The notes: generated by a model from the letters alone, not told the origin. Shown: positions 46,600 through 64,000, counted from the stretch's first letter. The stretch is 64,000 bases of DNA from Deltaproteobacteria bacterium (GCA_029938605.1 JAOZUO010000013.1:6462-70461); one strand, 5' to 3'. Program-made: numbers and translations.

Positions 46600-47952
46600 C
46601 TATTGGTCTGACGGCTTCTTCAGCCCGTACTTTTTAATGCGGTTGTACAGGGTTACCCGATCGATACCCAGCAGCGCCGCCGATCGGGTGATATTCCACG
46701 AAAGGTCCTCGAGCACCTCGATGATGTGCGCCTTCTCCATCTCCTGGATGGACCGGTCCTGGGGCACGTAGGCCTGCTCCTGTTGGTAAAAGGGCAGAGA
46801 GGTCGCCCCGATCTCCCTCCCCTGTCCGATGACCACGGACCGCTCGATGGCGTTCTCCAGCTCCCGCACGTTGCCCGGCCAGTCGTGGAGCATCATCTCG
46901 TCAAAGGCCTCCCGGGAGATCTTGTCCACGGGTTTGTTCAGCTCCCTGGCAAACCGCTTCAGGAAGTGCTTGGCCAGGATCGGGATGTCCTCCTTCCGCT
47001 CCCGCAGGGGCGGCACGTGGATGGCGATGACGTTCAACCGATAGAACAGGTCCTGGCGGAAGCTGCCCTCGGAGATGGCCTGGGCGAGGTTGCGGTTGGT
47101 CGCGGCGATCACCCGAAAGTCCAGGTCGATGCGCTGGCTCCCCCCGACGCGGTAGAAGTGCTTTTCGTCTAGCACCTTGAGCAGGTCGATCTGCATCTTC
47201 ATGCCGACCTCGCCCACCTCATCGAGAAACAGCGTCCCGCCCTGGGCCAGCTCAAAGCGGCCCTTGCGCAGGTGCACGGCGCCGGTGAAGGCGCCCTTTT
47301 CGTGACCAAAGAGCTCGCTCTCGAGCAGATGCTCGGTGAAGGCGCCGCAGTTGACGGCGATGAAGGGACAAGCCGCCCGGGGAGATTGGGCGTGGATGGC
47401 CTTGGCAACCAGACCCTTGCCCGTGCCCGTTTCGCCGGTAATGAGCACGCTGGTGTCGGTCTCGGCCACGCTGAGAATCAGCTCAAAGACCTTCTCCATG
47501 GCGGCCGAGCCGCTGACCAGGCTCTCGAGGCGCTGGCGACTTTGGACCTGCTCTTTGAGGATCTCGTTCTCTTCGGCCAGCTTTTGGTGTCCGATGATCC
47601 GCTCGATGAGCACACTGATCTCGGCGGGATCGAAGGGCTTGAGCAGGTAGTCGTGGGCGCCCCTCTTCATGGCCAAAACGGCCGTATCGATGGAGCCAAA
47701 AGCGGTAATCATCACCACGGCGAGCTCAGGATCGTCCTGCTGAAGGTGGCCTAACAGCTCGATGCCATCCATGCCGGGCATCTTGATATCGAGGAAGATG
47801 ATGTTGTAGCGGCGCGCCTTGAGCAGCTCCAGGGCCGCCTCGGCGCTGGAGGCCTGATCCACCTCGTAGCCGTCCATCTGCAGCCAGCCGGCGAGGGACT
47901 CGCGCACGATCTCTTCGTCGTCGACTATAGCGATCCGCGCCTTCTTCTTCAT
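46600..47952 (-). CDS. Sigma54-dependent response regulator (NtrC/AtoC type: REC-AAA-HTH)
   Basis: [79 protein letters not shown]. Confidence 0.96.
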
Positions 47953-47970: not shown

Positions 47971-49515
47971 TTAGGAAACTTCGCTTCGATACACCGGCAA
48001 TGTCACCAGGAAGGTGGTTCCCTCGGGGCCGGTCTGCTCCACCTCCACCTGGCCGTTGTGCTCCTTGACGATACCGTAGACCACGCTCAACCCCAACCCC
48101 ACCCCCTTGCCCTCGGACTTGGTGGTAAAAAACGGCTCGAAGATGTGCGGTAGGCTCTCGGGCCCAATCCCCGGACCGGTATCGGTGATGCGGGTGAGAA
48201 GCAGGTCCGATTCTTCATCGTATTGGGTCGACAGCAGGAGCCGTCCATCGGTCTCGGGGCCCATCTCATCTACGGCGTTGAGCAGGATGTTCATGAAGAC
48301 CTGCTCGAGCCGGCTGACATCTCCAAGCACGGGTGGCAGATCCCCCTGAAAATCCCGGACGAGCTGGATCTTGTTGAGTGCCAGGTGGTGCGCGTTGAGC
48401 TCTGTGATCAGGTCCAGGATCTCGTTGAGCTGCGCCTCGGCGGGCTCGAGCTTGGACTGCCGGGCAAAGGCCAGCAGGTTGGAGACGATCTTGGAGCAAC
48501 GCGCCGTCTCGTTCTCCATGAGACCGAGCTGGCCGAGGATCGTCTTACACATGTCCTGGGAGGGCTCGAGCTCGGTGAGCATGCGTCGCTGCAGCCGGAT
48601 GAAGTTCAGCACCCCGGTGAGCGGATTGTTCAGCTCGTGCACCACCGACGCCGAGAGCTTGCCCAAAGAGCTCATCTTGTCCTGCTGCAGGAGCTTGCAG
48701 TGGGCCTCCTCGATCTGCCGGGTCCGCTCTTCAACGGCGCGTTCCAGCTCCTGGGTCATTCGCTCCTGGGAGCGATGTCTCTCGGTGATGTCCCGACAGA
48801 TCTCGATGAACCGCGTCACCTTGCCCTCCATGTTCCGTAGCGGATAGAGGGTCAGATCCACGATGCGCTCCTCGCCATCGAGGTTGTAGTGGGTGTGCAT
48901 CTCGTGGTGGGGCTCTCCGGTCTTCAAGATCTCGTCAATGGGGCACGGATGATCCGGAGGCTGACAGGGCTGCTCGGAGTGATGGAACACCTCGTAGCAC
49001 TTGCGCCCCACCACCTCCTGGGCAAGGAGCCCGGACTGATCGAGGTACGGGGTGTTGACCTGCACGACGTTGTGCTCCCGGTCGATGACCACGATCCCCT
49101 CGAGGATTCCATTGATGATGGTCTCGAGCTGATCCCGCTGGGCCTTGTAGCGATTCTCCTCGACCTGGTAGGTGTCACGGATGAGCGCCGCGGTGTTGTA
49201 GGCCATCACGCGGGTGCTGGCGGGCCGCCTGGCGAGCACCTCCTCCAGGACCGCCTCGTCAGGTGTGAAGATGAAGATCTGGTTCACCTCCACTTTGTCG
49301 GCATCGAAGTAGTCGTGAAAGTCGGCAGTGGTGTACAGCCCCTTGTCCCGGGCATAGACCATGCCCACGGCGTCTGCGTCGGGGTCGGCCACAGCCACGT
49401 ACTCGCCGTGCACAAGCCGCGACTTGTAGTGCCGAAAGGCCCGGGTCAGCATGTCGCGACACATCTCACCGCCACCGATGATACCGATGCGCAGCCAGAG
49501 CCTGCCCGGCTCCAT
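47971..49515 (-). CDS. Cytoplasmic sensor histidine kinase: Rossmann-like N-domain, PAS, HisKA, HATPase
   Basis: IGIIGGG..VAVADPD; PAS with GRKCYEVFH..PC..CP; VVHELNNPL; NILLNA; DTGPGI; FEPFFTTK..GVGLGLS. No TM segment. Confidence 0.92.
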   Translation of the reverse strand: MEPGRLWLRIGIIGGGEMCRDMLTRAFRHYKSRLVHGEYVAVADPDADAVGMVYARDKGLYTTADFHDYFDADKVEVNQIFIFTPDEAVLEEVLARRPASTRVMAYNTAALIRDTYQVEENRYKAQRDQLETIINGILEGIVVIDREHNVVQVNTPYLDQSGLLAQEVVGRKCYEVFHHSEQPCQPPDHPCPIDEILKTGEPHHEMHTHYNLDGEERIVDLTLYPLRNMEGKVTRFIEICRDITERHRSQERMTQELERAVEERTRQIEEAHCKLLQQDKMSSLGKLSASVVHELNNPLTGVLNFIRLQRRMLTELEPSQDMCKTILGQLGLMENETARCSKIVSNLLAFARQSKLEPAEAQLNEILDLITELNAHHLALNKIQLVRDFQGDLPPVLGDVSRLEQVFMNILLNAVDEMGPETDGRLLLSTQYDEESDLLLTRITDTGPGIGPESLPHIFEPFFTTKSEGKGVGLGLSVVYGIVKEHNGQVEVEQTGPEGTTFLVTLPVYRSEVS

Positions 49516-49605
49516 CGCCTTCTCCTTCACCTTGGACTCTTGCTTGGATCCCAAGTCAGCCCTCCCCACCTGCCCGCCAACTGCGGCCGCGTTCGGGACT
49601 CGCCC

Positions 49606-50547
49606 CTACACCTCGGGTCGCGGCAACACCTTGGCCAGCTCTGCGATCTCGGGCACCTTGTGCTCCCACTCGATGGCCATGAGGTGCACTCCGGCGACGC
49701 CCTCCATCTCCTTGAACTCCTCGATCTGCTCGCAAGCCATCTTGATGCCTTCGGCGGCCTTCTTGCCCTTGGGGGCGGCCTTGAGCCGATCAATGACCGA
49801 ATTGGGCACGTCCATACCCGGCACCTTCGACTTCATATAGCGCGCCATACCGACGCTCTTCATGGGGGTGACCCCGGCGAGGAGGTAGCACTTCTCGGTG
49901 AGGCCCATGTCCACAGCCTGTTTCACGAACTCCCGGAAGCGCTCCATGTTGTAGATGCACTGGGTCTGAACGAAGTCCACGCCGGCCGCCACTTTTTTGG
50001 CCAGCCGGTGCGGCCGCCACTTGTGGGGCTCGGCGAAGGGGTTACACGCCGCTCCGATGAACATCTTCGGCGGCTCCTCGATGTCGTCCCCTCCCAGAAA
50101 TTTGCCCTCATCCCGCATGGTCTTGACCATGTTAATGAGCTGCATGGAGTCGATGTCGAAGACCCCCTTGGCCTGGGGATGATCCCCGAACTTCTGGTGA
50201 TCCCCCGACAGACACAGCAGGTTCCGGATGCCCAGGGCCGAGGCGCCCAGGATGTCGGCCTGCATGGCCAACCGGTTGCGGTCCCGACACACCATCTGGT
50301 AGTTGGGCTCGAGGCCCTCTTGGATGGCGATGAGCCCCGCGGCCCAACTCGACATACGCACCATGGCCGTCTGGTTGTCGGTGATGTTCACCGAGTCCAC
50401 CATGCCGATGAGATGCTTGGCCTTGTCCCGCACCTCTTGGGCGCTGCTGCCCCGGGGCGGGCCGAGCTCACCGGTAAACGCAAAATGCCCTGCCCTAAGC
50501 ACCTTCTCCAGGTTGCTTCCCGACTTGAAGTTATTGTCAGAACCCAT
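49606..50547 (-). CDS. metF: Methylenetetrahydrofolate reductase
   Basis: FTGELGPP, NITDNQTA, CRDRNRLAMQADILGA, LCLSGDH, AGVDFVQTQ, GVHLM. Confidence 0.93.
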   Translation of the reverse strand: MGSDNNFKSGSNLEKVLRAGHFAFTGELGPPRGSSAQEVRDKAKHLIGMVDSVNITDNQTAMVRMSSWAAGLIAIQEGLEPNYQMVCRDRNRLAMQADILGASALGIRNLLCLSGDHQKFGDHPQAKGVFDIDSMQLINMVKTMRDEGKFLGGDDIEEPPKMFIGAACNPFAEPHKWRPHRLAKKVAAGVDFVQTQCIYNMERFREFVKQAVDMGLTEKCYLLAGVTPMKSVGMARYMKSKVPGMDVPNSVIDRLKAAPKGKKAAEGIKMACEQIEEFKEMEGVAGVHLMAIEWEHKVPEIAELAKVLPRPEV

Positions 50548-50559
50548 GTCTGAACTCCT

Positions 50560-51234
50560 TTATTGCTCGGACTCGGGCTTCTTGTAGCCGGGTTGGATAG
50601 TGGTTCTCGGTACCTGGTTCTCGTGCTCCCGGGCCGGCGTGAAGGCGATGATGCCGTCGAGACGCCCTTGCTTCTCGAGCCGCTCGTAGATCATGTGCCA
50701 GGCGCAGTCCTGGTCGTCCGAGATCTCGCACTTGCCGTGGTTCGTTCCACCGCAGGGACCGTTGTACAGGGACTTGGCGCACATGGTCACCGGGCAGACG
50801 CCGCCGGTGACACCGAGCACACAGCTCGAACAGGAGCGGCACCGCTCCTCGTACCAGCCCACGCCCTGGTTCACACCGATGAAGGTGGTGTCCACCATCG
50901 GAAGCACGGGCGTCTCGGGAAAGCGCTCAGCGAGGAACTGCACCCCCGCCCCACAGGCCATGGTGAGCAACGCGTCGTACCCCTCCACCTTGTCGTCGAG
51001 CACCTCGAGGTACTCCCGATCACACTGCCGCTCCACGGTGATGCTGTCGATGTCGATGGGCTCTTTGCTCAGGCGACGAGCCATGTCGATCTCGGCGGAC
51101 AGGACGTCCACCTCTTTCTCGCCACCGACCAGGCACACCGCCACACAGGTGCCACAGCCGACATTGAGCACCTTCTTATAAGGGCCGATGAGGTCCTTGA
51201 TCTCCTCGAAAGGCTTTCGCTTGCCAACGATCAT
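50560..51234 (-). CDS. metV: MetV-type small MTHFR subunit (Zn/Fe-S)
   Basis: GCGTCVAVC, RQCD, ACGAGVQ, C..C..C.LG.TGG.CP.T.CAKSLYNGPCGG, DCAW. Confidence 0.9.
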   Translation of the reverse strand: MIVGKRKPFEEIKDLIGPYKKVLNVGCGTCVAVCLVGGEKEVDVLSAEIDMARRLSKEPIDIDSITVERQCDREYLEVLDDKVEGYDALLTMACGAGVQFLAERFPETPVLPMVDTTFIGVNQGVGWYEERCRSCSSCVLGVTGGVCPVTMCAKSLYNGPCGGTNHGKCEISDDQDCAWHMIYERLEKQGRLDGIIAFTPAREHENQVPRTTIQPGYKKPESEQ

Positions 51235-51261
51235 TTTTTTACCTCTCGCACGGGGGCGCTC

Positions 51262-52593
51262 TTAGACTTCAAACACTTCTATCTCGTCGTGGAACACATT
51301 GACCTTCTTGAGGTCGGGCCCCAGGTACGCCCGCTCCTTGGGAGACAGGATACCCAGGGCGAGGCACAAAATAGTCCAGAAGTGCACCACATGGTAGCCA
51401 CCTCCAAAGTGCTCACTCAGATCGTGGATTTGGGCGTGGCAGTTGTGGCAGCCGGCGATGACGTAGGTGGCGCCGGTCTCCTTGATCTGATCGTCCTTGA
51501 TCTTGCCGTAGCCCCGCCGCTCCTCGGGGAATCCCGACTGCAGGAACCCACCACCCCCGCCGCAGCAGTAGTTGTTGGACTTATTGGGCTGCATGTCGAT
51601 GAAGTTCTCCTCACCGATGCAGGCCTTGAGAGCGTAGCGCAGATCGTCGGCGATGGCGTCACCGAAGCTCTTGCGCACGATCTGGCAGGGATCCTGAAGC
51701 GTAAACTTGATCTTCAGATCCTTGTTCCAGTCAGAGTTGGGCTTGAGCTTTCCTTCGCGAATCCACTTCGCGTAGTACTCATAGATGTTCTTAACTTCAA
51801 AGTTGTGCGGAATGTTGAACTTGTTCAGTCCGGCCCGGACTGCAAATGTTACGTGGCCTCACTCCGTGTTTAAGAATATCTTGCAGCCTAACTTGTCAGT
51901 CACCTCCGCGGCCTTGCGGGTGATGTGCTCCCACCCCTCATCGTCGGCCATGAACAGACAATAGTTTTCCGCGGCCCAGGCGGTCTTCGGATAGGTCCAG
52001 GACGCGCCCACCTGGTGCAGGATCTTCCACAGAGGCACCATCTCGTCGGGCTCGGTCATGGGCTCCCGAGAGTTCTGGTTCACCAGGAAGTGGGCCCCCT
52101 CCTTATCTAAGGGAGCCTCCAGGTCCTTGAACTCGGGCTGGTCGGTCTGCGTCTCCTCGAGCACGTCATTGACGATCCACTCAAAGTCCTCGGGGCTCGT
52201 ACCCATGGCGCTCAAGGATTCATTCGCCAGCGCCGCGTCGCAGGAGTGCAAGATGCCCTTGGGGCGCTCGGACCGTGGGACCTTCTGCCGCAGCTTGTAG
52301 ATCATCTGCGGGATGTCGATCTGCATGGGACACACCCGGCTACAGCGCTGACACATGCTGCAGAACCACGGCCACCTGGAGGCGAGGATCTCCTCGTCCA
52401 TGCCCAGGCTGAGCATCCGTAGGAACTTGCGCGGATCCATGTCGTCAAACGATGACGAGGGACACCCCGATGAGCAGAGCCCACAGGTGAGGCACAGGTT
52501 CAGGTTGCCCTGGGGCAACATTTCGCGCAGCTCGTCCAAAAGGTTCGGTTTGCGCTTTCCACCTAGCTTGATCGCCGTCTCAGCCATTTTCAT
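51262..52593 (-). CDS. HdrD-like Fe-S oxidoreductase (two 4Fe-4S motifs plus CCG domains), selenoprotein, 443 aa
   Basis: CLTCGLCSSGCP and CSMCQRCSRVCP; TGA 51859-51861 reads NTE-U-GH (the ECGH position) and the frame continues to QDPC, YCCGGGGG and GCHNC. Confidence 0.9.
51826..51842 (-). promoter_or_regulatory. Bacterial SECIS hairpin for the HdrD-like gene
   Basis: CAGUCCG-GGC-CGGACUG, 7 bp Watson-Crick stem, 16 nt after UGA. Confidence 0.8.
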
Positions 52594-52607
52594 CCCCTTT
52601 GCGGGAG

Positions 52608-53036
52608 TTATTCATCTTTGTTCTGGGCGGTGCCGAGCGGGCTCGGGCCCACCTCTTTGATGTACGCCGTCATCTCCTTGGCGTAGGCCGCGAATGTCGG
52701 CCCCTCACCCGAGGAGAGGTTGTACATGCGCACCCGCTCTTTTTCCATGCCCATCTCGTCGAGCATGGACTGCACGTGCTCCACCCGCTCGCGGCACCGG
52801 AGATTCCCGGCGTTGTAGTGACAGGTACCCTCCAGGCAGCCGACGCAATAGACCCCGTCGGCGCCTTTCTGAAAGGCCCGCAGCATCAACATCACGTCCA
52901 CCTTGCCCGTGCAGGGCACGCGCACGATCCGCACGTTCGCCGGATACTCCAACCTCATCGAACCTGCCAGGTCCGCGGCTGAGTAACCTCAGAACTCGCA
53001 GCAAAATGCAATGATCGTCGGTTCGAACTCGCTCAT
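52608..53036 (-). CDS. mvhD: MvhD/FlpD [2Fe-2S] subunit, selenoprotein, 142 aa
   Basis: MSEFEPTIIAFCCEF-U-GYSAADLAG..RVPCTGKVD..GCLEGTCHY; TGA 52989-52991; ATG overlaps the hdrA stop. Confidence 0.9.
52960..52974 (-). promoter_or_regulatory. Bacterial SECIS hairpin for short mvhD
   Basis: GGACCU-GGC-AGGUUC, 6 bp stem, 14 nt after UGA. Confidence 0.75.
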
Positions 53037-56000
53037 CCCGTTTTCTCCGCCAAAAGTCCATCTACCTTACTGATCAGTTGGTCGTCTTCATAGAAGCCGA
53101 GCTGGATCGTCTGGCGGGGGCACACACAGGCGCACACCCCGCAGCCGTGGCACATGGCCTCGTCGATCTTGATCAGCTTTTCGTTGTTGTCGAACACCGG
53201 CACGTCGAAGGGGCAATTTCGCACGCAGGTCAAACACTTCACGCAGTGGTCGGTGTCCACCTTGGCCGTAATGGCCGAGAGCTTGATCTCGGGCTTGGCC
53301 AGGAACGTAGTGGCCCGGGAGGCCGCCGCCTGGGCCTGGGCAAGCGTCTCGGTGATCAGCTTGGGCCCGTGGGCCGTGCCACACAAAAAGATGCCCGCGC
53401 CCGGCATGTCCACCGGACGCAGCTTCACGTGGGCCTCCATGAAGTAGTTCTCTAGATTCGTGTTGAGCTTCATGGTCCGACACAGCGTCTCGGTGTCGGC
53501 TGCACGCAGCCCGGCGCTCAGGGTCACCAGATCCGCCTCAATGGCCACCTGCTGCCCCAGGATGTGGTCCTTGACCCGAACCACCAGCCCATCACCGCTC
53601 TTCTCCACGATCGGCGGCTCCTCCTCCTTGAACCGGATGAAGATAACGTCCTTTTCCCGAGCCTCCCGATAGTAGTCCTCCATCTGACCGTAGGTGCGGA
53701 TGTCCCGGTACAGCACGAACACCTGGGTGTCCGGGCTCTGCTCCTTGATGGCCAACGCGTTCTTCACCGCGTTCTGGCAGCAGATGCGCGAGCACTCCTG
53801 CATCTCGTCGTTGCGGGAGCCCACGCACTGGATCATCACCACCGTGTCAACATCCGCCACGCCCTTTTCGGCGATCCGATCGGAGAGATCGAGCTGGGTG
53901 ATCACCCGCTCGTCGTCACCAAAAAGATACTCGGTGGGCTCGTACTCCACCGCTCCGGTGGCCACCACGATGGCGCCGTGGTCGATGGACCGCTTGTCCC
54001 CGCCCACTGCCACCTCCGTGGTGAAGTTGCCCTGGTACCCGCCAAAGCCCACCACCTCGGCGCCTAGGAGCACCTCGATCTTCTCGGCCCCCGACACGTC
54101 CGCCACGAGCTTGGCCACAAAGGCCTGCACGTCGGCGCCCTCGATGGTGTGGTGCAGTCGGCGCGCCAGACCACCGAGGCTGTCTGTCTTTTCGAGCAGC
54201 ACCACCGGGAAGCCCTGTCGCTCCAGGTTCAGCGCCGCGGTCATGCCCGCCACGCCCCCACCCACCACCAGGGCCTTCTGGTTCACCGGGATGCGCTTCT
54301 CCTCCATGGCCTTGAGCGTCCGAGCCCGCGCCACCGCCGCCCGGACGAGGTCCTTCGCCTTTTCGGTGGCGGTGTCCGGGGTCTTGGAGTGGATCCAGGA
54401 GTTCTGGTTCCGGATGTTGGCCATCTCGAACAGATAGCGGTTCAGGCCGCAGGCCTCCAGGGTCTCCATGAACATGCCCTCATGGGTCTTGGGGCTACAA
54501 GAAGCCACAACGACCCGATTGAGCCCCTGTTCGATGATCATCTCCTTGATCTTCTCCTGCGTATCCTGGCTGCAGGTGAAGAGGTTGGAGTCAGTGAACA
54601 CCACGTTGTCGAGGGTCCCGGCGTACTCCTGCACGGCGGGCACGTCCACCACGCCGCCAATATTGATGCCGCAGTTGCAGACAAACACCCCGATGCGGGG
54701 CTCCTGGTGGGCGACCTCCTTTTGTTCGGGCAGGACGATGGTCTCCACGTCCGTTCCCCGAGCCGCCGACAGGTCGGCCCCCGCCAGGCAGGCCGCCGCG
54801 CTGGCCTCGGTGACGCTCTCCGGAATGTCCTTGGGCCCCTGGAACACGCCACACACGTAGATGCCGGGCTGGTTGGTCTCCACCGGCGCCAGGGGATCGA
54901 TCTTGGCGTACTTGTACTTGTTGAGTTCCACCCCCAGGCGATCCGCCAACCGCGTGGCGTCCTCGGGAATGGTGAGGCCCACCGACAGGACCACCATGGA
55001 GAACTCGTCCACACAGACCTTGCCCTCCTCGTCCACATAGCGGACAGACAGGTCCCCGGTCTCGTGGTTCTCGTCGATGGTATGCACCCGGGCCTTGACG
55101 TACCGCACCCCCTCTTTGTCCCGGGCGCGCATGAAATACTTCTCGTAGTCCTTGCCGTAGGTGCGCATGTCCATGTTGAACACCACCGCGTCCAGATCGC
55201 CGTGGATATGCTCCTTGGCGATCATGGCCTCCTTGGTGGCGTACATGCAGCAAACCGACGAGCAGTAGCCGTTCCCGCACTGGTTCGTGTCGCGGGAGCC
55301 GATGCACTGCAGCCAGGCGATGGACTTGGGCTCGGCGCGATCCAGGGGGCGCATGATGTGGCCGTAATACGGCCCGCCCGCCGACAGGATCCGCTCGAAG
55401 CCGTCAGAGGTGACGACGTTGGCGAACTTCCCGTAGCCCAGGTGATCGAGGCCCGCCGGGTCGAAGGGCTTGGTGCCCGGAGCCAGGATGATGGAGCCCA
55501 CCTGCACGTCCGTCTGGCGCACCTTGTCGTCGTAGGCCACCGCGCCGGCGAGACACATGTTCTCGCACAGGCCGCAGCCCACGCAAGCGTCCATGTCGAT
55601 GGCGTAGGCGAGGGGCACCGCCTGGGCGTACTCGATGTACGTGGCGGCGCGGTCGTTCATGCCCTTGTTGATCGTGTTGATCGCCGCGATGGGGCAGTGG
55701 CGCGCGCAGTCGCCACAACCGGTGCACTTGTCCGCATCGATGTAGCGTGGGTTGTTCTGCAGCGATACCTGGAAGTTGCCCGGATCTCCGGACAGACCAG
55801 CGACCTCGCTGTTGGTAATCAGCTCAATGTTCTCGTGCCGGCCGACCTCGACCAGTTTAGGTGAGATTACTCACATCGTACAGTCGTTGGTCGGGAACGT
55901 CTTGTCCAGGCGGGCCATGAGCCCACCGATGGTCGGTCCTTTCTCCACCAAGTACACTTTGTAATCAGAATTTGCGAGATCGAGGGCGGCCTGCATGCCG

Positions 56001-56056
56001 GCGATACCAGCTCCCACCACCATTACCGATCCGCTCAAATTGTCCTGATTAGCCAT
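53033..56056 (-). CDS. hdrA: Heterodisulfide reductase subunit A-like flavoprotein, selenoprotein, 1007 aa
   Basis: [27 protein letters not shown] (TGA 55871-55873); the frame stays open through 70 more codons into ORF 53033..55660; WLQCIGSRD..CSSVCC; VVGGGVAG; C-terminal ferredoxin motifs. Confidence 0.93.
55838..55855 (-). promoter_or_regulatory. Bacterial SECIS hairpin for hdrA
   Basis: CUGGUCG-AGGU-CGGCCGG, 7 bp including two GU pairs, 15 nt after UGA. Confidence 0.75.
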
Positions 56057-56065
56057 GGTCTCTCC

Positions 56066-56815
56066 TCAAAGCGCTGCGAACACCGGGATGGACTCCTCCA
56101 TGCCTGTAAACTCGACCAGCTTCTTCTGCTCGAGATCGGCCAGGAGGTAGGACACCCGTAAGACTTCAATTTCGGTTTGCTCAGCCACCTGCCGCACCGA
56201 GGTGGTGCCGGACTTGATGGCCAGATAAATGAGGCTCTTCTGATACTCCCGCAAAAGCGCGTCGTCGAGCACCTGCTGGAGCTTCTCTTCCTTCCAGGGG
56301 CGCCCGTAGACGTCGCCCGCCGAGGTGATCTTGTGCTGCTTGCCCACCAACCACCGCATCACCTCGCCCTTGACCACCATCTCGGCGGCCCGAAGTTGCA
56401 AGTCGTACTTCGACACATCCAGGGGGCCGCGCTTCCGCACGGCCTCGGTGGCCTCGGTGACGATCTCGGTGAAGCGCTTGGCCTCGGCCGACGAAACCCA
56501 GTCCACATGGAGCCGGTCTCCGCCGATGCCCGTGAGCTCCAGCAACTGCTGGGTCATCGCCATCTTCTTTTCGGCCTGAACATTACCTTCCAGGTAATGG
56601 CAATCGCCGATCAGTCACCCGGCGACAAGGGCGCCGTCCACCCCGTCTCGGAAGGCCTGAACAATGAACGCGGGGTCCACCCGGCCCGAGCACATGACCC
56701 GCACAGACCGCACGTTGGCCGGGTACTGCATACGCGATACCCCGGCCAGGTCGGCGCCGGCGTATGCACACCAGTTACAAAGGAAGGCGACGATTTTGGG
56801 TTCGAATTCGTCCAT
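56066..56815 (-). CDS. mvhD: MvhD/FlpD with C-terminal helical/wHTH-like extension, selenoprotein, 249 aa
   Basis: [40 protein letters not shown] (TGA 56615-56617), joining ORF 56066..56563 in frame. Confidence 0.9.
56581..56599 (-). promoter_or_regulatory. Bacterial SECIS hairpin for long mvhD
   Basis: CAUUACCU-GGA-AGGUAAUG, 8 bp Watson-Crick stem, 15 nt after UGA. Confidence 0.8.
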
Positions 56816-56827
56816 CGGTAAAACCCT

Positions 56828-59800
56828 CTACACCACGGCCCGCACCGCCGCCTCGATCTGATGGAAGCGGAAGTGCAGCATGTCGATGGCCTCCTGGGGG
56901 CAAGAGGCGGCACAGAGACCGCACCCCTTGCAGGAAGCCTGAATATTCTTGGCTCGCTTGATCCCGTCGACCTCTTCGAGGTGGATGGCGCCAAAGGCAC
57001 AGACCTCCTCGCACAGACCGCACCCGATACACTTGTCGGGATCCACCTCAGATACGTAGGGCGAGATCTGGATCTGGTCCTTGGACAGGACCGTCACCGC
57101 CCGGCTCGCCGCCGCCATGGCCTGGGCGATGGACTCATCCATGGCCTTGGGGTAGTGCGCGAGGCCGGCCATGAAGAGGCCGTCCGAGGCGAAGTCCACC
57201 GGACGCAGCTTGGCGTGCGCCTCCATGAAGAACCGGTCCTCGGTGAGCGGGAGCTTATAGAAGGACGCGATATCCTCCGCCCGATTCGGCTCAATGGCCG
57301 TGGCCAGGTTGAGCAGATCCGTCTCGATCTCCACGGGCGCCCCGAGGATGGGATCGAAGACCTTGACGATCAAGCCATCGCCCGCGGCCACCACCTCCGG
57401 CTTACGATCGAGCGCGTACCGGATGAAAATCACCCCCAGCTCGCGCGCCTGTTTATAGAGGGCCTCGCGCTCGCCGAAAGTCCGGATGTCCCGGTACAGC
57501 ACGAACACGTTGGTGTCCGGCTTGTTCTGCTTGATATCGATGGCCATGGCCACAGTGGTGGAGCAACAGATCCGCGAGCAGTAGGGACGCGGATCGTTGC
57601 GGGACCCCACGCACTGAATGAAGGTCACCGTGTCGGCCTTTGCCAGCTTCTGTGGATCCTGCTCCAGATCGTGCCACCGGGTCACGGCCGGGTGCTGCCC
57701 GTAGAGGTACTCCTCGGTGTCGGTGGGCGCCCCTCCCGTGGCCACCACCACAGCACCGTGGCTGATGGTCTGGGGTCCTTTGCCGTTTTTCACCTCGGTC
57801 TCGAAGTTGCCCACGTAGCCCGAGGCGCCCAGCACCTCGGCGTCGGTCATCACGGTCAGGTTCTTGTGGCCCCCGACCCGCTCGATGAGACTGGTGAGAA
57901 ACGACTGAACATCCCGACCGTCGTGGGTGCGCTTCACATCGAGCGCCCGCCCACCGAGCTGGGAGGACTTCTCCACCAGCGTGGTGGGGAACCCCTGGTC
58001 GGCCAGGCCCAGGGCGGCGAACATGCCCGCCACGCCGCCGCCGATGACCAACGCCGCCTTGTCCACATTGACGGAGATGGGCTGGATGGACTCCAGCTCC
58101 CGGGCCCGAGCCACGCCCATCCTCACCAGGTCCTTGGACTTAGACGTGGCGAGATCCTTGTTCTCGGAGTGAACCCAGGTGCACTGGTTGCGGATGTTGG
58201 CCATCTCGAACAGGTGCGGGTTCAGGCCGGCGTTCTGCAGGGTAAACTGGAACAGCGGCTCGTGGGTCCGCGGCGTACAGGCCGCCACGACCACGCGGTT
58301 GAGCTTCTGCTCCTTGATGGTCTGGGTGATCTTCTCCTGGGTGTCCTGGCTGCAGGAGAACATGTTCTCCTCGGCGTACACCACACCGTCGAGCTCCTTG
58401 GCGTAGTCCACGATGGCCGGCACATCCGCGATGCCGCCGATGTTCAGGCCGCAGTTGCACACGAACACGCCTACCCGGGGCTCGTCGTCGGCCACGTCGA
58501 TCTCGGCGGGCAGCTCCAGGGTCCTGGTGAGCGTAGAGCGAGCCGGTGCCAACCCCGCGCCGGCGATGCAAGCCGCCGCGCTGGACTCAGCCACGGAGTC
58601 CGGGATATCCTTGGGACCGTTGAAGGCGCCACAGGCGAAGACGCCCGGTCGCGACGTGGACAGCGGAGTCAGGGAGTCGTGCTTCACGAAGCGGTTCTCG
58701 TTGAGCTCCACCCCGAGCCTCTCAGCCAGGGCCACGGCCTCGTCGGAGACCCGGAGCCCCACCGAGAGCACGACCATGTCGAACTGTTCGTCGACCACCT
58801 TGCCGTCCTCGGTGAAGTAGCGCAACCGGAGGTCCCCCGTGTCGCGCACCTCATCGATGGTATGCACCCGCGCCTTGACGAAGCGGACGCCGCTTTGGTC
58901 CTCCCCCCGGGTCAGGTACTTCTCGTACTCCTTGCCGAAGGTGCGCATGTCCATGTTGAAGATGGCGCAGTCGAGCTCGCCGTCAGCGTGCTCCTTGGCC
59001 ATCATGGCGTCCTTGACGGCGTACATGCAGCACACCGAGGAGCAGTAGCCGTTGCCGCAGCGGTTGGTGTCCCGCGAGCCCACGCACTGGAGCCAGGCGA
59101 TCTTCTTGGGCACCTGGTGGTCCGATGGGCGCGACAGGTGGCCCTCCGTGGGACCCGAGGCGCTGAGGATCCGCTCGAACTCCAGGCTGGTCATCACGTT
59201 GGGGTTGGACCGGTGGTGGTAGGTGTCCTCCATGCCCGATGGGTCGAAGGGCTCGATGCCCGCCGACAGGACCACCGCGCCCACCCGGATCTCCCGCTCC
59301 ACCTCCACCATGGAGTGGTCGATGGCGCCGGGAGCGCAAACGGTGACGCACTCCATGCAGTCGCTGCAGTACGAGCAGTTCAGGCAGCGGTCGGCCTCGG
59401 CCTGGCCCGCCTCGGGCTCGAACCCGAGCTCCACCTCGTCGAAGGTCGCGCGCCGGGACGCCGGCTCGAGCTCGGGCATAGAGGCCCGGGCAGCCTTGGG
59501 CATGTCGGTGGGCACCGGACGATAGATCGGATCGTCCTTGGTGATGGGAACGCGCCCATCGGCCATGTCCTTGCCGTCGATGAACCGGGAAATGGAGACG
59601 GCCGCCTCGCGCCCCGCGGCCACGGCGCCAATGGCGTTCCAGGGGCCCGTGTGGGCGTCACCGCCGGCGAAGACACCCTCCCGCGGTGTGGCGTAGGTGA
59701 CACCGTCGGCCTCGAGAGTCCCCCGGCGAGTGTACTCTACCTCTTTGTCGCCCTCGAAGGCGCTGAAGTCGGGCTGCTGTCCGATGGCCGCCACCACCTG

Positions 59801-61246
59801 GTCCGCCTCGAGATCAAACTCACTTCCCGGTACGGGTACAGGCCGCCGCCGGCCCGAGGAGTCAGGCTCGCCCAGCTCCATGCGGATGCAGCGCATGCCC
59901 TTGACCTTGCCGCCCTCCACCAGGATCTCCTGGGGCGCGGCCAGGTACTCGATCTGGACGTCTTCGGCCTCCGCCGCCTCGATCTCTTCCTCCCAGGCGG
60001 GCATCTCCGTACGGGTCCGCCGGTAGACGATCTGCACGGACTGGGCCCCGAGGCGAACCGCCGCCCGGGACACGTCGATGGCCACATTTCCGCCACCGAT
60101 AATGAGGACCTTCTTGCCCACCTGGGTCTTGCCCGTGAGGTTCACCTCACGCAGGAAATCCACACCCTGCCGCACGCCGTCAGCGTCGTCGCCCTCCACG
60201 GCGAGGTCGTAGCCCTTGTGGGCACCCACGGCCAGATACACGGCCTTATAGTCCTTGAGCAGGTCGTCCACCGTGAGATCCGGACCGAGGGGGGTGGAGG
60301 TCTTGATCTCCACGCCGAGGTTCGTGATGACCTCGATCTCCTGGTCGAGAATCGCCTCGGGCAGGCGGTGGTTCGGGATGCCCACCCGGAGCATTCCGCC
60401 CGCCTTGGGAAGGGCCTCATAGATGGTGGACTTGATGCCCTGGCGTGCCAGGTGGTAGGCCGCCGACAGGCCGGCCGGGCCGGACCCCACGATGGCCACC
60501 TTCTCGGGACGCTCCTCCATGCAGTCGATCTTCACCTGGCGGGGATCGAACTGATCCGCGGCCAGCCGCTTGAGCCGACAGATGGAGACGGGCTCGTCCA
60601 CGTCACAGCGCCGGCAGGCGTCCTCACACTCGTGGGGACAGATGCGCCCCAGGACGCCGGGGAGGGGCAGATCGTCCATGATGATCTCGAGGGCGCGCTC
60701 GTACTTGCCCTCCTTGACCATCTGCACGTAGCCCTGGACGTTGAGACCCGCCGGACAGGAGAGCCGGCAGGGCGCGCGATCCGTCTTCTGGATGGCGAAG
60801 ACGCCCGGGATGGCCTGGGCATACTTCTTATAAGCAGCCTTGCGGGTGCCGAGCCCTTCGTCGAACTCGTCTGGGAGCACAACGGGACAGACCTTCTCGC
60901 ACTCACCGCAGGAAGTACACTTGTCGAGATCCACGAAGCGAGGCTGGGTCCGCACCCGCGCGGAAAAGTTCCCCGGATCGCCCTCCAGGGCTTCCAGCTC
61001 GGTTCCCGTGAGCAACTCGATGTTCAGATGCCGGCCGACCTCGACCAGTTTAGGTGAAATAATTCACATGGTGCAGTCATTGGTGGGGAAGGTCTTGTCC
61101 AGCTTGGACATCACCCCACCAATGGCTGTGGACTTCTCCACCAGGTACACGTAGTAGCCAGATTCAGCCAGATCCAGCGCCGATTGCATGCCAGCAATGC
61201 CGCCGCCGACTACCATCACGGAGCCTGCAAGGTCCTGTTTGCTCAT
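56828..61246 (-). CDS. hdrA: HdrL-type large HdrA with inserted GltD/NfnB-like NAD(P)H module, selenoprotein, 1472 aa
   Basis: [19 protein letters not shown] (TGA 61064-61066); [21 protein letters not shown]; [11 protein letters not shown]; [13 protein letters not shown]; Hdr[16 protein letters not shown]; terminal ferredoxin motifs. Confidence 0.93.
61031..61048 (-). promoter_or_regulatory. Bacterial SECIS hairpin for hdrL
   Basis: Identical 18-mer to the hdrA SECIS, 15 nt after UGA. Confidence 0.75.
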
Positions 61247-61576: not shown

Positions 61577-61600
61577 ATGTACTAGAAAACATTAGTACAT
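61577..61600. promoter_or_regulatory. Palindrome ATGTACTA-N8-TAGTACAT in AT-rich leader of the hdr operon
   Basis: Perfect 8-bp arms, about 330 nt upstream of the hdrL start. Confidence 0.5.
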
Positions 61601-61656: not shown

Positions 61657-63171
61657 TTAACGCGCCACGGTCTCCGTTTGGGAGGTGTCCATCTTCTGAC
61701 GGGCCTTCTCGATCATCGCGAGCACTTTTTCGGCCATCATGGGAGGAGTCTCTCGACGGAGTCGTTCCTCATCGATGGAGCTCCAGGCGCGCAGGGCATG
61801 CACCTTCTGTCCCGTGGGCCATAGCCGCAAGGACGCCCCCACCAGGGCCAGGGTCCGACGCGGCTCCTGGAGGGTCTTCGCCGTGTCCAGCAGCTCGTCC
61901 ACGTAGGGCACCAGGTCATCGGAGCCGCGACTGGGCGGCCAGCAGGCCAGCAGCTTCTGCAGGGCAACCAGCCGGGCCACGGGCTCCTCGTCCACGGCCC
62001 CGGCCAGGGCGCGCTCAAGCAGCTCGGTGGCGCGCTCGGAGCGCCGCTTCGCCTGGAGGGCGTCAGCCCGCATGGTCGCCACATTGAGTCGATCCAGGGG
62101 CGTGAGCCGGGCGTCATCTATCTCCCGCAGCAGCGTCCGCGCTCGCTCCGAGCGGCCGAGGCCCAACCAGGCCCGGGCCACGGAGGTCTTGAGGGCGATA
62201 AGGACCTCGGAGTCCAGGTCCTCCTCCATGAGACGGGAGCCCGCCGCCACCACCGCCTGACCAAGCTCCTTGGTCAGGCCCTGGTTCCCGATGACCACAC
62301 CCAAGGCGGTAAGACAGGCCGCAACGGGGGTGGTGCGGTGGCCGTTTTCCACCAACGCCTCCAACGCGGTGGCGCAGCGTCTCACCGCCTCCGCGGAGAT
62401 CTGGAATCGCTCGGCGAGCTGCAAAATGCGCTCAAGGGCCTCAATGTCGTCGTCGGGCTCGGGCGACTCCATGGCCAGGTTCAGCGCGCGCACGAGCAGC
62501 TCTTCGGCACGATCCGGGTCGGTCTCTCCCTCCGTTGCCATGGCCTCCTCCATGACGTGGCCGTACTCCGCTCGGATCTCATCGAGGTGGCGGCTGTCCA
62601 TGGGGGTGTGCTTCCCTGAAGGCTCCCCGGCGGTGATCCCCCGCAACCGGTACAGCTCCCTCCGGGGAAGCGCTGCCGCCGCGGCCAACCGTACGGTCTG
62701 CGCCAACAGCGGGTACTTGCGCGGGTCGATTCCCGGCAGGAAGGTCTGGTACATCCCGGGCAGGCACGCCAGCAGCCCGACATCGGCGCTCACCAGGCGA
62801 ATGGCGCCCGCCAGGTGCACCCGCCCCCGGAGGATGTCCAGGGCGTATCGCCGGAGCCCGTCGCTGGCAGGCAAATCTCCGCGATGCTCCACGATGGTCT
62901 CCAGCACCCGGTGAAACCCGATGGTGTTCTGCGCCTCCACGTAGAAGGCCCAGTCCAGCCCCTGGGTACCAAACAGCGAGGCGGTATCGGTGGACTCGAG
63001 CTCCTGCTCCGCCGAGCCGGCCCACCCCGCGCTGATGAGCAGCACCTCGTCATCCACCTCCCCCCAGCGCAGTCGCATGTCCAGAATTCCGGCCGCCTGA
63101 TCCTGGCGGTAGGAAGCGAACAGATCGCTGGCCAACTGCAGCTTGTCCTCGTGTCCTTCTTCACTCGTCAT
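61657..63171 (-). CDS. Hypothetical helical-repeat (TPR-like) protein
   Basis: Long open frame, Ala/Leu/Glu-rich helices; probable ATG at 63171 (MTSEEGHEDK). Confidence 0.6.
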   Translation of the reverse strand: MTSEEGHEDKLQLASDLFASYRQDQAAGILDMRLRWGEVDDEVLLISAGWAGSAEQELESTDTASLFGTQGLDWAFYVEAQNTIGFHRVLETIVEHRGDLPASDGLRRYALDILRGRVHLAGAIRLVSADVGLLACLPGMYQTFLPGIDPRKYPLLAQTVRLAAAAALPRRELYRLRGITAGEPSGKHTPMDSRHLDEIRAEYGHVMEEAMATEGETDPDRAEELLVRALNLAMESPEPDDDIEALERILQLAERFQISAEAVRRCATALEALVENGHRTTPVAACLTALGVVIGNQGLTKELGQAVVAAGSRLMEEDLDSEVLIALKTSVARAWLGLGRSERARTLLREIDDARLTPLDRLNVATMRADALQAKRRSERATELLERALAGAVDEEPVARLVALQKLLACWPPSRGSDDLVPYVDELLDTAKTLQEPRRTLALVGASLRLWPTGQKVHALRAWSSIDEERLRRETPPMMAEKVLAMIEKARQKMDTSQTETVAR

Positions 63172-63245
63172 GGTCGTAGTCCCCTGTCTTCCCAACTGGT
63201 TCCCAAGGTACCCACTCAGTATCCCGACCCCCCCCCGCCCGGTCA

Positions 63246-63295
63246 ATACGGAAATACCACATACGGAAATACCACCTGACATACGGAAAACCATC
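63246..63295. repeat. Three direct repeats of ATACGGAAATACCAC in a divergent intergenic region
   Basis: 63246-63260 and 63261-63275 exact; 63281-63295 degenerate. Confidence 0.85.
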
Positions 63296-63351
63296 GGGGC
63301 TGGTCGAATAACTTGCATACCCCAGGGTGTCGAGGCAGATCCTTTACCTCC

Positions 63352-64000
63352 ATGCGACGGTTTCATGACATGGCCCTCTGGGCGCTCGTGGTGCTCGCGA
63401 TGTCCATGGCTGCCTGTGACAACGACCCGAGCGCCAGCGACGCTCCGGACCCTGTCCATGGCGGAACCGACACCGCGCCGCCGCCGACTTTCAGAGCCGA
63501 CGCCTGGCCCGAGGCCGACGCGCTCTTCGAGGGAGACCCGCGCTGGATCGGTGGCGACGCGGCCTACTCGGTAGACCTGGGCAACGACCGGGTGCTCTGG
63601 CTCTTCGGCGACAGCTTCATCGCCACCGGGGCCAACCGGTTGCGCAGCGAGTCGGCGATGGTTCGCAACTCCATCGCCATCCAGACCGGCCGGGATCCGT
63701 CCACGGCGACGGCGGCCTTCCATTGGCGAGAGCCCAACTCCCCCGCCGCGCCGGAGGCCTACTTCTCCGAGCCGCTGTCCATGGAGACCTGGCTCTGGCC
63801 CCTGGGCGGTGCGCCCGTAGGCAACGGGGTGCTGCTGTTTTTTACCCGGGTGACGCCTACAAGCACGGGCCTGGGATTCGACGGCGTGGACTGGCAGGCC
63901 CGCTGGGTCGAAAACCCCGACGACGACCCGGACCTGTGGCGGATATCCACGCCCGAGGCGCCGGCCAATCCCTGGCGCATTTTCCTCGGCACCGCGGTGA
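63352..64000 (+). CDS. Lipoprotein of DUF4185/DUF5005-like beta-propeller type, truncated at right edge (absent from ORF track)
   Basis: MRRFHDMALWALVVLAMSMAAC; WIGGDAAYSVDLGNDRVLWLFGDSFI; no stop before 64000. Confidence 0.7.
   Translation, partial: MRRFHDMALWALVVLAMSMAACDNDPSASDAPDPVHGGTDTAPPPTFRADAWPEADALFEGDPRWIGGDAAYSVDLGNDRVLWLFGDSFIATGANRLRSESAMVRNSIAIQTGRDPSTATAAFHWREPNSPAAPEAYFSEPLSMETWLWPLGGAPVGNGVLLFFTRVTPTSTGLGFDGVDWQARWVENPDDDPDLWRISTPEAPANPWRIFLGTAV

Follow-up and report, generated by a model that had tools for sequence, protein, structure and literature searches.

A seven-gene hdr-mvh-metVF operon as a candidate Hdr-linked methylene-THF reductase related to the type IV enzymes

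Introduction

An operon in which Hdr and Mvh genes are followed by metV and metF raises the question of which enzyme its products form and which electron carriers this enzyme would connect. Such an operon lies in the window, by which we mean the whole stretch of 64,000 nucleotides analysed here, and the genome appears to belong to an uncultured lineage of Myxococcota living in hydrothermal sediment. In the Hdr-linked methylene-THF reductase (MTHFR) of Moorella, methylene-THF is handled by MetF and NADH by HdrA, which holds two FAD (PMC5861303); bifurcation has been proposed for this enzyme (PMC8760232, PMC5861303), however, its reduction of ferredoxin has not been shown experimentally and its second acceptor has yet to be identified (PMC8760232).

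Results

Gene content and layout

The operon, hdrL-mvhD-hdrA-mvhD-hdrD-metV-metF, occupies 61246..49606 on the minus strand and consists of the following genes.

61246..56828, minus strand: hdrL, 1472 aa (mvhD1 starts 12 nt downstream)
56815..56066, minus strand: mvhD1, 249 aa
56056..53033, minus strand: hdrA2, 1007 aa
53036..52608, minus strand: mvhD2, 142 aa, its start overlapping the hdrA2 stop (ATGA)
52593..51262, minus strand: hdrD-like gene, 443 aa
51234..50560, minus strand: metV, 224 aa (metF 12 nt away)
50547..49606, minus strand: metF, 313 aa

The genes are separated by gaps of 9-27 nt apart from the single ATGA overlap, and no credible terminator was seen inside the operon. Pfam and NCBIfam profile matches support the families of all seven products. 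Compared with one close relative, six of the genes show dN/dS values of 0.09-0.24, and the operon genes are under purifying selection. A sequence-only reading of this DNA had listed the same seven genes at these positions, with two distinct HdrA proteins each followed by its own MvhD, and gene order and domains agree with it. The same reading had noted the absence of hydrogenase and Flx genes; neither flx nor hydrogenase genes were found in the operon or its flanks, so that it does not represent an FlxABCD-HdrABC cluster.

Selenocysteine codons

Under plain translation table 11 the five Hdr/Mvh genes look like broken reading frames, and each requires read-through of one in-frame TGA. The codons and the hairpins that follow them are given below.

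61064-61066, minus strand: in-frame, conserved TGA, read as Sec61 of HdrL
61033..61046, minus strand: SECIS-like hairpin GGUCGAGGUCGGCC, 20 nt past the hdrL UGA
56615-56617, minus strand: in-frame TGA, read as Sec67 of MvhD1
56581..56599, minus strand: SECIS hairpin CAUUACCUGGAAGGUAAUG after the mvhD1 UGA, stem near-invariant in 40 distinct orthologous sequences
55871-55873, minus strand: TGA, read as Sec62 of HdrA2, opposite the second Cys of DCSMC in the alignment to HdrA of known structure
55840..55853, minus strand: SECIS-like hairpin after the hdrA2 UGA, identical in sequence to that of hdrL
52989-52991, minus strand: in-frame TGA, read as Sec16 of MvhD2
52960..52974, minus strand: SECIS hairpin GGACCUGGCAGGUUC after the mvhD2 UGA, near-invariant among the distinct orthologous sequences listed
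51859-51861, minus strand: TGA, read as Sec245 of the HdrD-like protein, Cys in 120/120 Cys-type homologs
51826..51842, minus strand: SECIS hairpin CAGUCCGGGCCGGACUG after the hdrD UGA

We assign these five TGA codons, one per Hdr/Mvh gene, to selenocysteine on the strength of the sequence comparison, because relatives hold either TGA or cysteine codons at the same positions and the codons are followed by nucleotide-invariant hairpins. Each of the five positions is TGA in 44-66 relatives, nearly all exceptions being TGC or TGT, and residue 245 of HdrD is encoded by TGA in 55 of the 55 metVF-linked copies. The hairpins lie 17-20 nt past each UGA, with nucleotides near-invariant even at wobble positions. 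The hdrL hairpin GGUCGAGGUCGGCC forms part of AAACTGGTCGAGGTCGGCCGGCA, a stretch with at least 98% invariance across 126 HdrA-type TGA sites. In relatives, a G:C pair of the hdrD stem is replaced by U:A, a compensatory change; a search for Rfam families returned no match for the hairpins. As a sequence feature, the five putative selenocysteine codons are the most striking of the operon, and they had been absent from the sequence-only reading.

HdrA-type proteins and the NADPH-type module

Both large proteins carry HdrA-type FAD and Fe-S domains (Pfam/NCBIfam), with two HdrA-type FAD domains each, and they match solved HdrA with 622 bits to 5odc_A and 622 bits to 8rvu_a. A GltD/NfnB-type module (Fer4_20, PF14691, and Pyr_redox_2, PF07992; residues ~157-620) is found in HdrL only; HdrA2, likewise a large HdrA with a pair of FAD domains, lacks this insert. 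The module enters at exactly HdrA position 290/291, within the ferredoxin-reducing inserted domain and between its cluster motifs (C110 and C627 of HdrL). Behind it follows a second HdrA-like half consisting of an N-domain, a second FAD domain and a C-terminal 2x[4Fe-4S] region. HdrL thus unites HdrA domains and a GltD-type NAD(P)H/FAD module in a single polypeptide, with mvhD as the next gene, in agreement with the HdrL fusion of PMC2702500.

The module is of the NADPH-FAD-2x[4Fe-4S] type seen in NfnB, GltD and StnA, with GxGxxG/A motifs at 254 and 384. The YRR motif of NADPH type that had been claimed for one of the HdrA proteins is real (Y408-R409-R410) and aligns with YRRT in 9bov_A and 8oh5_C, which share a YRRT..EMPA motif with HdrL. 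In modules of this type, the arginines of a YRR that ends the second Rossmann fold bind the 2'-phosphate. The best solved relatives of the module are 9bov_A, 8oh5_C (which we take to be StnA of Sporomusa StnABC), 9n5u_A ('NfnA') and NfnB (4ylf_B, 5jca_L), which are NADP(H)-binding modules. The HdrL insert aligns end to end with NfnB of NfnAB and with 8oh5_C (E 1e-80 to 1e-128), and has in common with them the two-cluster Fer4_20 domain as well as the folds for FAD and NADPH; in contrast to these, it is no free subunit but interrupts the inserted-ferredoxin domain of an HdrA. HdrL therefore carries what appears to be an NADPH-type site, and specificity for NADPH is probable from the motif.

MvhD, HdrD-like, MetV and MetF subunits

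An FlpD domain is present in both MvhD proteins (Pfam). MvhD2 is a plain MvhD, whereas MvhD1 extends its MvhD/FlpD core (8-128) by about 115 C-terminal residues, predicted to form two helices and a winged-helix-like domain. In place of separate HdrC and HdrB, the latter with two CCG domains, the operon encodes a single fused HdrD-like protein, as had been proposed before. Its domains (Fer4_8 and one CCG match in Pfam) agree with this: the N-terminal half is HdrC-like with 2x[4Fe-4S], matching HdrC of solved structures over residues 15-117 only, and there is one canonical CCG motif (C303, C343-C344, C382, C385), while the HdrB profile TIGR03288 is matched only at E 3e-5. The nearest curated families are TmcB, HmcF and DsrK. 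Its scores nevertheless lie far under the cut-offs of these families, with 173.8 against a cut-off of 735 for TmcB, 170.4 against 750 for HmcF and 108.7 against 400 for DsrK.

MetV is a Cys-rich Fe-S/Zn subunit (PF12225/DUF5981, 'MTHFR C-terminal', E 1e-33), and MetF contains the MTHFR domain PF02219 (E 8e-36). MetF scores 80 bits against TIGR00676, the E. coli-type NAD(P)H equivalog (cut-off 293.7), its best solved relatives reach only E 1e-10, and it is paired with MetV throughout the related loci.

Distribution of the layout and origin of the operon

The same seven-gene layout is found in 18 of the 160 related loci and, with hdrD alone missing, in 3 more; one of these identical or near-identical loci comes from a MAG that bears the label Desulfosudis oleivorans. 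Further layouts that recur are without the NADPH module, without HdrD or with one HdrA. Two-HdrA loci without the GltD module (25) are about as frequent as those with it (21), and HdrD is missing from 15 of the 62 loci with a fully classifiable layout. Large HdrA, MvhD and MetVF, on the other hand, stand together in practically all related loci whose length suffices to reveal linkage (well over 100 loci). These three form the constant core, whereas the presence of HdrD, of a second HdrA and of the GltD module varies.

The seven-gene layout is common in sulfate-reducing Desulfobacterales. The sequence-only reading, borne out in its gene content, NADPH-type module, fused HdrD and lack of hydrogenase or Flx genes, had also suggested that this version is unusual; that part is not supported, the identical layout being common in Desulfobacterales and comparable arrangements having been published (PMC5736913, PMC10553843). 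For its inference of an Hdr-linked methylene-THF reductase, by contrast, the synteny conserved across well over a hundred loci gives strong backing.

MetVF branches deep inside Desulfobacterales sequences, and because the host looks like a member of the Myxococcota, this placement suggests that the operon was gained by an old horizontal transfer. Three further genes follow metF.

49569..47971, minus strand: PAS histidine kinase, 36 nt past metF
47952..46600, minus strand: sigma-54-type response regulator, 18 nt after the kinase
46598..46047, minus strand: M54 peptidase, 1 nt after the regulator

In two loci of Desulfobacterales the same trio lies upstream of hdrL in divergent orientation, and it is a possible regulatory cassette for the operon.

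Discussion

Comparison with known systems

The type IV MTHFR MetFV-HdrABC-MvhD, described from Moorella thermoacetica by Mock et al. (2014) and summarised in PMC8760232 and PMC5861303, likewise combines MetF and MetV with HdrA, MvhD and an HdrB/C-type CCG protein, and hydrogenase is absent as it is here. As in that type, MetF adjoins MetV, and HdrA and MvhD belong to the same cluster. The present operon differs in having two large HdrA and two MvhD, one HdrA with an NfnB/StnA-like NADPH module, HdrB and HdrC fused as an HdrD-like protein with one canonical CCG motif, five predicted selenoproteins, and an order with the hdr genes first and metVF last.

The HRM2 paper (PMC2702500), in its account of these genes, describes for Desulfobacterium autotrophicum a similar HdrA/glutamate-synthase-type fusion with an NAD(P)H site, a tandem hdrL/hdrA locus with mvhD after each, and selenocysteine forms among HdrL, HdrA, MvhD and HdrD. 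That account deems HdrL unique to HRM2 and makes no link to metVF, whereas here the link is a conserved feature and the layout is widespread. Marine Chloroflexi have been described with a fused HdrB-HdrC beside mvhD-metVF (PMC5736913), and sulfate reducers of seeps with HdrA/HdrABC genes that neighbour metF (PMC10553843). These clusters of uncultured marine-sediment anaerobes share the fused HdrB-HdrC, mvhD and metVF and were read as bifurcating MTHFR, however, they have a single HdrA, and neither a GltD module nor selenocysteine is reported there (PMC5736913, PMC10553843).

With methanogen HdrABC-MvhAGD (5odc, 8rvu, 9sfi) the present proteins share the HdrA domains, the MvhD fold and HdrC-like clusters. 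The assigned selenocysteines also correspond: HdrA2 Sec62 matches the DCSMC cysteine, and U16 of MvhD2 and U67 of MvhD1 align with two X residues of 9sfi_K, presumably selenocysteines. Unlike the methanogen complex, the operon is without hydrogenase and separate HdrB, each large HdrA amounts to ~1.6 HdrA equivalents fused in one chain, and the high-potential acceptor would presumably be methylene-THF rather than CoM-S-S-CoB. The operon is best read as a further example of the known Hdr-linked kind of MTHFR, apparently a relative of type IV.

Proposed function and alternatives

We consider it probable that the products form one soluble, multi-flavin, Fe-S-rich complex of ~3850 residues per protomer, related to type IV MTHFR and bifurcating or confurcating. 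We infer the single complex from the operon structure, and its cofactor content, NADPH specificity, ferredoxin coupling and direction are likewise proposals; the bifurcation or confurcation mechanism is proposed purely by homology. The MetF flavin would interconvert methylene-THF and methyl-THF, MetV would relay electrons through its Fe-S clusters, and MvhD2, with the HdrD-like protein where present, would join MetV to the HdrA-type flavoproteins. The NfnB/StnA-like insert of HdrL would be the dedicated NADPH site, and the inserted-ferredoxin domains of HdrA likely the ferredoxin site. Running reductively, the complex would use 2 NADPH for the joint reduction of methylene-THF (E0' -200 mV) and ferredoxin by flavin-based bifurcation; in the oxidative direction, in complete-oxidising sulfate reducers, methyl-THF and reduced ferredoxin would together reduce NADP+ by confurcation. 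NADPH cannot be the universal partner, because among two-HdrA loci the GltD module is lacking about as often as it is present.

The variable layouts might instead point to two enzymes linked only by soluble ferredoxin, with HdrL-MvhD1 as an Nfn/Stn-like NADPH:ferredoxin (or NADPH:X) oxidoreductase and HdrA2-MvhD2-HdrD-MetVF as a ferredoxin-linked MTHFR. The modules are indeed separable in evolution, as single-HdrA, GltD-less and HdrD-less layouts show, and in L083, a close relative, hdrL and mvhD1 are set apart by an insert of 4 kb while the downstream genes are still under purifying selection. We nevertheless hold this division to be unlikely: wherever two large HdrA genes are present they are always adjacent and in unchanged order, and single-HdrL layouts join HdrL directly to MvhD2 and MetVF. 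A bridging role of MvhD1 between both HdrA is moreover suggested, because MvhD1 with its extra C-terminal domain is found only in two-HdrA layouts. A plain, non-bifurcating NADPH:methylene-THF oxidoreductase, with Hdr/Mvh as a mere wire like RnfC2 in the type III enzyme of Acetobacterium woodii, would agree with the recruitment of a pyridine-nucleotide site by site-less MetVF in other lineages (PMC8760232), and HdrL brings exactly such a site. It is very improbable to us, since a wire would hardly need two MvhD, a pair of inserted-ferredoxin domains and as many as four FAD domains of HdrA type, and layouts without any NADPH module still hold HdrA and MvhD. Oxidation of methyl-THF by NADP+ alone is also endergonic (-200 vs -320 mV; PMC8760232) and therefore a problem for complete oxidisers with the operon.

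The HdrD-like protein raises a separate point, as its invariant Cys/Sec hints at thiol chemistry that the bifurcating-MTHFR model leaves unused. It might handle a third or fourth substrate of thiol/disulfide type (e.g. DsrC, or another protein or small-molecule disulfide/persulfide), with oxidation of methyl-THF or NADPH coupled to this acceptor and to ferredoxin, like heterodisulfide in methanogen HdrABC. Strict exchange of Cys and Sec at one position, as at residue 245, suggests a redox-active catalytic residue; the CCG motif is complete, the nearest curated families are TmcB, HmcF and DsrK, and the missing second acceptor of the Moorella enzyme (PMC8760232) leaves a place for such a substrate. 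Yet this reading is quite doubtful: HdrD is not essential to the core, being missing from 15 of the 62 classified loci, its scores fall far under the cut-offs of those families, and putative Sec at probable cluster-proximal positions in HdrA and MvhD indicates that Sec need not mean catalysis.

Beyond the preferred bifurcating or confurcating MTHFR complex, we offer, as a speculation of very low probability, that a catalytic HdrD with Cys/Sec245 and intact CCG lets the complex act on a further substrate of thiol or sulfur type, for example DsrC or a different carrier of disulfide or persulfide, and that the two HdrA in series run two linked bifurcations joining methyl-THF, NADPH, ferredoxin and the sulfur acceptor. 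[quoted passage not shown]

Gene content of the operon

The minus strand of the window codes for protein across 49606-61246 (GC3 0.78-0.88), and the Hdr/Mvh part of this stretch appears as a series of broken ORFs when translated with table 11. On three-frame translation with the type of stop marked, each break was found to be one in-frame TGA, and with TGA read as selenocysteine (Sec, U) the stretch comprises seven genes:

hdrL, 61246..56828, minus strand, 1472 aa, Sec U61
mvhD1, 56815..56066, minus strand, 249 aa, Sec U67
hdrA2, 56056..53033, minus strand, 1007 aa, Sec U62
mvhD2, 53036..52608, minus strand, 142 aa, Sec U16
hdrD-like, 52593..51262, minus strand, 443 aa, Sec U245
metV, 51234..50560, minus strand, 224 aa, no Sec
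metF, 50547..49606, minus strand, 313 aa, no Sec

The intergenic gaps from hdrL to metF are 12, 9, -4 (an ATGA overlap), 14, 27 and 12 nt, and scans for sigma-70 promoters and terminators on the minus strand between the operon genes yielded nothing informative. Pfam and NCBIfam recovered all gene families proposed in the sequence-only reading, which had also described the operon as free of hydrogenase and flx genes; none was found among its genes or neighbours. Standard gene calling breaks all five selenoprotein genes of the operon.

Selenocysteine codons and their hairpins

The five in-frame TGA codons encode selenocysteine. For comparison, 80 genome and 80 metagenome loci were gathered with MetV as the probe, which replaced HdrD as the synteny anchor because the closest full-length (Cys) HdrD homologs occur in other contexts. 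Within the 80 genome loci, TGA is present at the HdrL position in 58 of 64, at the HdrA2 position in 58/61, at the MvhD2 position in 66/69 and at the HdrD position in all 55 of 55, and 44 orthologs carry it at the MvhD1 position; nearly all non-TGA codons at the five positions are TGC or TGT. A hairpin lies 17-20 nt 3' of every UGA in the operon, and these hairpins are almost invariant in nucleotides, wobble positions included, while adjacent wobble positions vary. The HdrD hairpin shows a compensatory change from CCGGGCCGG to CCTGGCAGG. A search against the Rfam SECIS families gave no match at E up to 1.

As judged from alignments, the Sec positions of HdrA2, MvhD1 and MvhD2 match known ones. 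U62 of HdrA2 aligned with the second Cys of the DCSMC motif in solved HdrA (residue 205 in 8rvu_a and, by offset, residue 197 in 5odc_A), and U16 of MvhD2 and U67 of MvhD1 aligned with two 'X' residues of the hydrogenase delta subunit in PDB chain 9sfi_K, which we take to be selenocysteines. U245 of HdrD stands in for a Cys that is invariant in 120/120 full-length homologs. From mvhD1 to metF, all six genes align collinearly and gap-free with those of a close relative of the window, metagenome contig L083, with the TGAs kept and dN/dS values of 0.09-0.24 (0.04-0.16 for the parts 5' of the TGAs); therefore, these genes are real and functional.

At another locus (L001:10001-13400), an apparent second HdrD paralog, called solely as a 243-aa N-terminal half, comes after the best full-length (Cys-type) HdrD homolog. 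This paralog is probably another unrecognised selenocysteine gene.

Architecture of the Hdr and Mvh proteins

HdrL aligned with solved HdrA in four pieces, and its residues 157-634 aligned end to end with modules of the NfnB type (9bov_A, 8oh5_C, 9n5u_A, 4ylf_B and 5jca_L).

Table. Pieces of HdrL aligned with solved HdrA (5odc_A)
HdrL 11-154: HdrA 147-290
HdrL 625-846: HdrA 291-510
HdrL 921-1100: HdrA 2-181
HdrL 1322-1464: HdrA 500-642

These pieces place the NADPH module between the cluster motifs C110 and C627, spliced into the inserted-ferredoxin domain, the HdrA domain through which methanogen Hdr reduces ferredoxin. The YRR NADPH-type motif, noticed earlier from the sequence, is borne out by two printed alignments, where it matches VLYRRTREEMPA in 9bov_A and IIYRRTIDEMPA in 8oh5_C. 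Further solved relatives of the module are deposited as NADP(H) enzymes, namely NfnI, NADPH glutamate synthase and NADP+ dihydropyrimidine dehydrogenase. The motif match and these labels therefore make NADPH the likely nucleotide for HdrL.

HdrA2 follows the plan of HdrL without the GltD (NfnB-like) insert. Each of the two large proteins contains two HdrA-type FAD folds (GxGxxG at 14 and 1069 in HdrL, at 15 and 599 in HdrA2) but just a single copy each of the N-domain, the inserted-ferredoxin domain and the C-terminal ferredoxin domain, so that each looks like a fused, asymmetric form of the HdrA homodimer. Compared with MvhD2, MvhD1 has an extra conserved C-terminal extension of ~115 residues (residues 135-249, window 56069-56413, minus strand) with 19 invariant columns among 29 sequences, which AlphaFold predicts as two long helices and a winged-helix-like domain (pLDDT 87). 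A functional reading of this fold was dropped, as the winged-helix matches were weak (E at least 6e-3).

Layouts among related loci

The seven operon proteins were mapped on the 160 loci by tblastn, and 93 of the 160 were too short for a layout to be assigned.

Table. Operon layouts among the 160 loci
Two large HdrA, first with GltD (window type): 18 with HdrD, 3 without HdrD
Two large HdrA, no GltD: 21 with HdrD, 4 without HdrD
Single HdrL (with GltD): 9 with HdrD, 5 without HdrD
Single HdrA, no GltD: 2 with HdrD, 0 without HdrD
No hdr genes directly 5' of metV: 5 loci

These counts therefore define an invariant core of a large HdrA, MvhD and MetVF, and three modules are optional: the NADPH (GltD) module, HdrD, and the second HdrA with the extended MvhD. 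The MvhD1 extension is confined to layouts with two HdrA, while single-HdrA layouts have the plain MvhD2 type. Dozens of loci with a Desulfobacterales or Desulfobacteraceae label share the gene order of the window, among them L015 (a MAG labelled Desulfosudis oleivorans) and Desulfobacterium sp. N47.

A second, divergent MetF-like gene (30-34% identity) was seen in loci labelled Desulfobacterales, Desulfobacteraceae or Deltaproteobacteria. In L021:7489-11222, L033:7643-11885 and L044:18202-20662, it directly adjoins a further HdrL-type gene at a distance of a few kb from the main operon; upstream of the operon in L040, L050, L052, L055 and L061, the MetF-like gene was seen alone. This arrangement hints at a second HdrL-coupled MTHFR-like enzyme in those loci.

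Possible regulatory genes next to the operon

Genes for a PAS histidine kinase, a sigma-54-type response regulator and an M54 peptidase follow metF (window 46047-49569, minus strand) with gaps of 36, 18 and 1 nt, co-oriented with the operon both here and in L083. The same trio is divergent and upstream of hdrL in loci L073 (11-3310) and L079 (1130-4568), and L143 (1-1844) has a similar kinase and regulator pair divergent upstream of hdrL. These placements suggest a travelling regulatory cassette. Neither window 61247-61656 nor the region 5' of hdrL in 15 relatives contained a sigma-54 -24/-12 promoter; four weak matches in this search were discounted, two of which fall at the hdrL coding start. 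The hdrL promoter therefore offers no tie to the neighbouring sigma-54 activator.

Host and history of the operon

The host is a probable Myxococcota lineage. The best named relatives of the HtpG encoded in the window (56-60%) are from Myxococcales, Myxococcota and Bradymonadia MAGs. Outside the operon, the window encodes Ser/Thr kinases of eukaryote-like type as well as HEAT, LRR and DUF4215 repeat proteins. A hydrothermal-vent metagenome is the source of the DNA, which was found again in runs from cold seeps and marine sediment; no RNA run containing the region turned up.

The operon proteins are 58-83% identical (67-83% without HdrL) to those of L003, the closest Desulfobacterales locus. 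In a MetV+MetF tree of 125 sequences (a four-gene tree was also built), the window formed a group with the high-GC metagenome contigs L083 (support 0.995) and L086 (1.0). These three lie 13 nodes deep among Desulfobacterales sequences, with L003, L015, L016 and L018 as neighbours (support 0.89). Related loci labelled Desulfobacterales have a GC content of 43-47%, and the operon has that of the host (60-67%). The nested position and the host-like GC point to an old transfer from Desulfobacterales, which would have been ameliorated since.

Rearrangements are seen within the lineage of the window. L083 is 87% identical to the window in DNA across 11 kb, with the same gene order through kinase, regulator and peptidase, and carries an insert of ~4.05 kb with three ORFs between hdrL and mvhD1 (L083:1-4455; window junction ~56815). 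The insert has no obvious recombinase. On either side of it lies one copy of a direct duplication (at least 202 nt, 95% identical) that spans the final ~45 codons of hdrL together with the first ~12 of mvhD1. On L086:1-4178 (GC 64%), an inverted mvhD-like gene and metVF (76% and 84% identity) lie beside the counterpart of the window's gene 63723..61657 and the hdr block is absent, which implies gain or loss of the five hdr/mvh genes inside the lineage. That gene, a 688-aa ORF 5' of hdrL (window 61657-63723, minus strand) with no assigned function, matched nothing in Pfam, and none of the loci labelled Desulfobacterales contains a homolog; its conservation in L086 (87%) makes it a host-lineage gene outside the transferred block.

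Proposed function and relation to known enzymes

In methanogen Hdr, the 5odc work reportedly has the donor enter via MvhD and the FAD of HdrA bifurcate, with HdrC/B forming the high-potential branch and the inserted-ferredoxin domain the low-potential one. In the Moorella thermoacetica enzyme, MetF provides the methylene-THF site and NADH is oxidised by HdrA (PMC8760232). By homology with these two models, the operon product is most likely an NADPH- and ferredoxin-linked methylene-THF reductase, which would bifurcate in the reductive direction and confurcate in the oxidative direction. The HdrD-MetV-MetF arm would take the place held by HdrBC in methanogen Hdr, and the GltD module that of the hydrogenase. 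Sequence searches gave no solved structure of MetV or of a MetFV-Hdr complex.

Other readings of the same genes appear less plausible to us. The operon might encode two separate enzymes, which we consider unlikely. The HdrD-like protein, with an HdrC-like N-terminal half, has one complete CCG motif and four more conserved Cys positions, three invariant and one being Sec; it scored well under the NCBIfam cut-offs for TmcB, HmcF and DsrK, and its family serves in other contexts too, such as next to etfAB in Desulfonema magnum. That HdrD handles a further sulfur or thiol substrate seems slightly more doubtful still, and the most improbable of these readings is a plain NADPH wire to methylene-THF reductase.

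Among hypothetical partners of MTHFR, an H-protein has come under discussion (PMC8760232). The window codes for a 355-aa protein (33552-34619, plus strand), 15 kb off the operon, whose residues 189-307 form a GCV_H (glycine-cleavage H protein) domain, and has a perfect TGGCAC-N5-TTGC at 33636-33650; no link between this protein and the operon is seen here.

An NADPH- and ferredoxin-linked methylene-THF reductase would be related to type IV MTHFR, a known kind (PMC8760232, PMC5861303). HdrL and tandem hdrL/hdrA loci are already described (PMC2702500), as are fused HdrBC with mvhD-metVF (PMC5736913) and, in seep sulfate reducers, HdrA genes adjacent to metF (PMC10553843). No MetF-Hdr statement appears in the proteogenomics paper on Desulfococcus multivorans. 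Neither a description nor biochemistry of the exact seven-gene, five-selenoprotein layout was found in the searchable literature, although this layout is widespread in public genomes. The Moorella complex has separate HdrB and HdrC, whereas the window operon lacks these, so its product may work like the Moorella complex without being an orthologous copy.

The operon bears on two questions: the coupling of the methylene-THF reductase step to energy conservation in acetogens, and the feasibility of methyl-THF oxidation in complete-oxidising sulfate reducers. The window alone does not settle the energy coupling or the second acceptor of the Moorella-type enzyme; the locus comparison provides a usable map of fixed core and optional modules, and Desulfosudis oleivorans, a cultured species with the full seven-gene layout (seen as a MAG), could serve for biochemistry. 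A probable Myxococcota lineage of hydrothermal and seep sediments carries, under purifying selection, a five-selenoprotein operon of apparent Desulfobacterales origin, which adds to the evidence for anaerobic C1 metabolism in Myxococcota.
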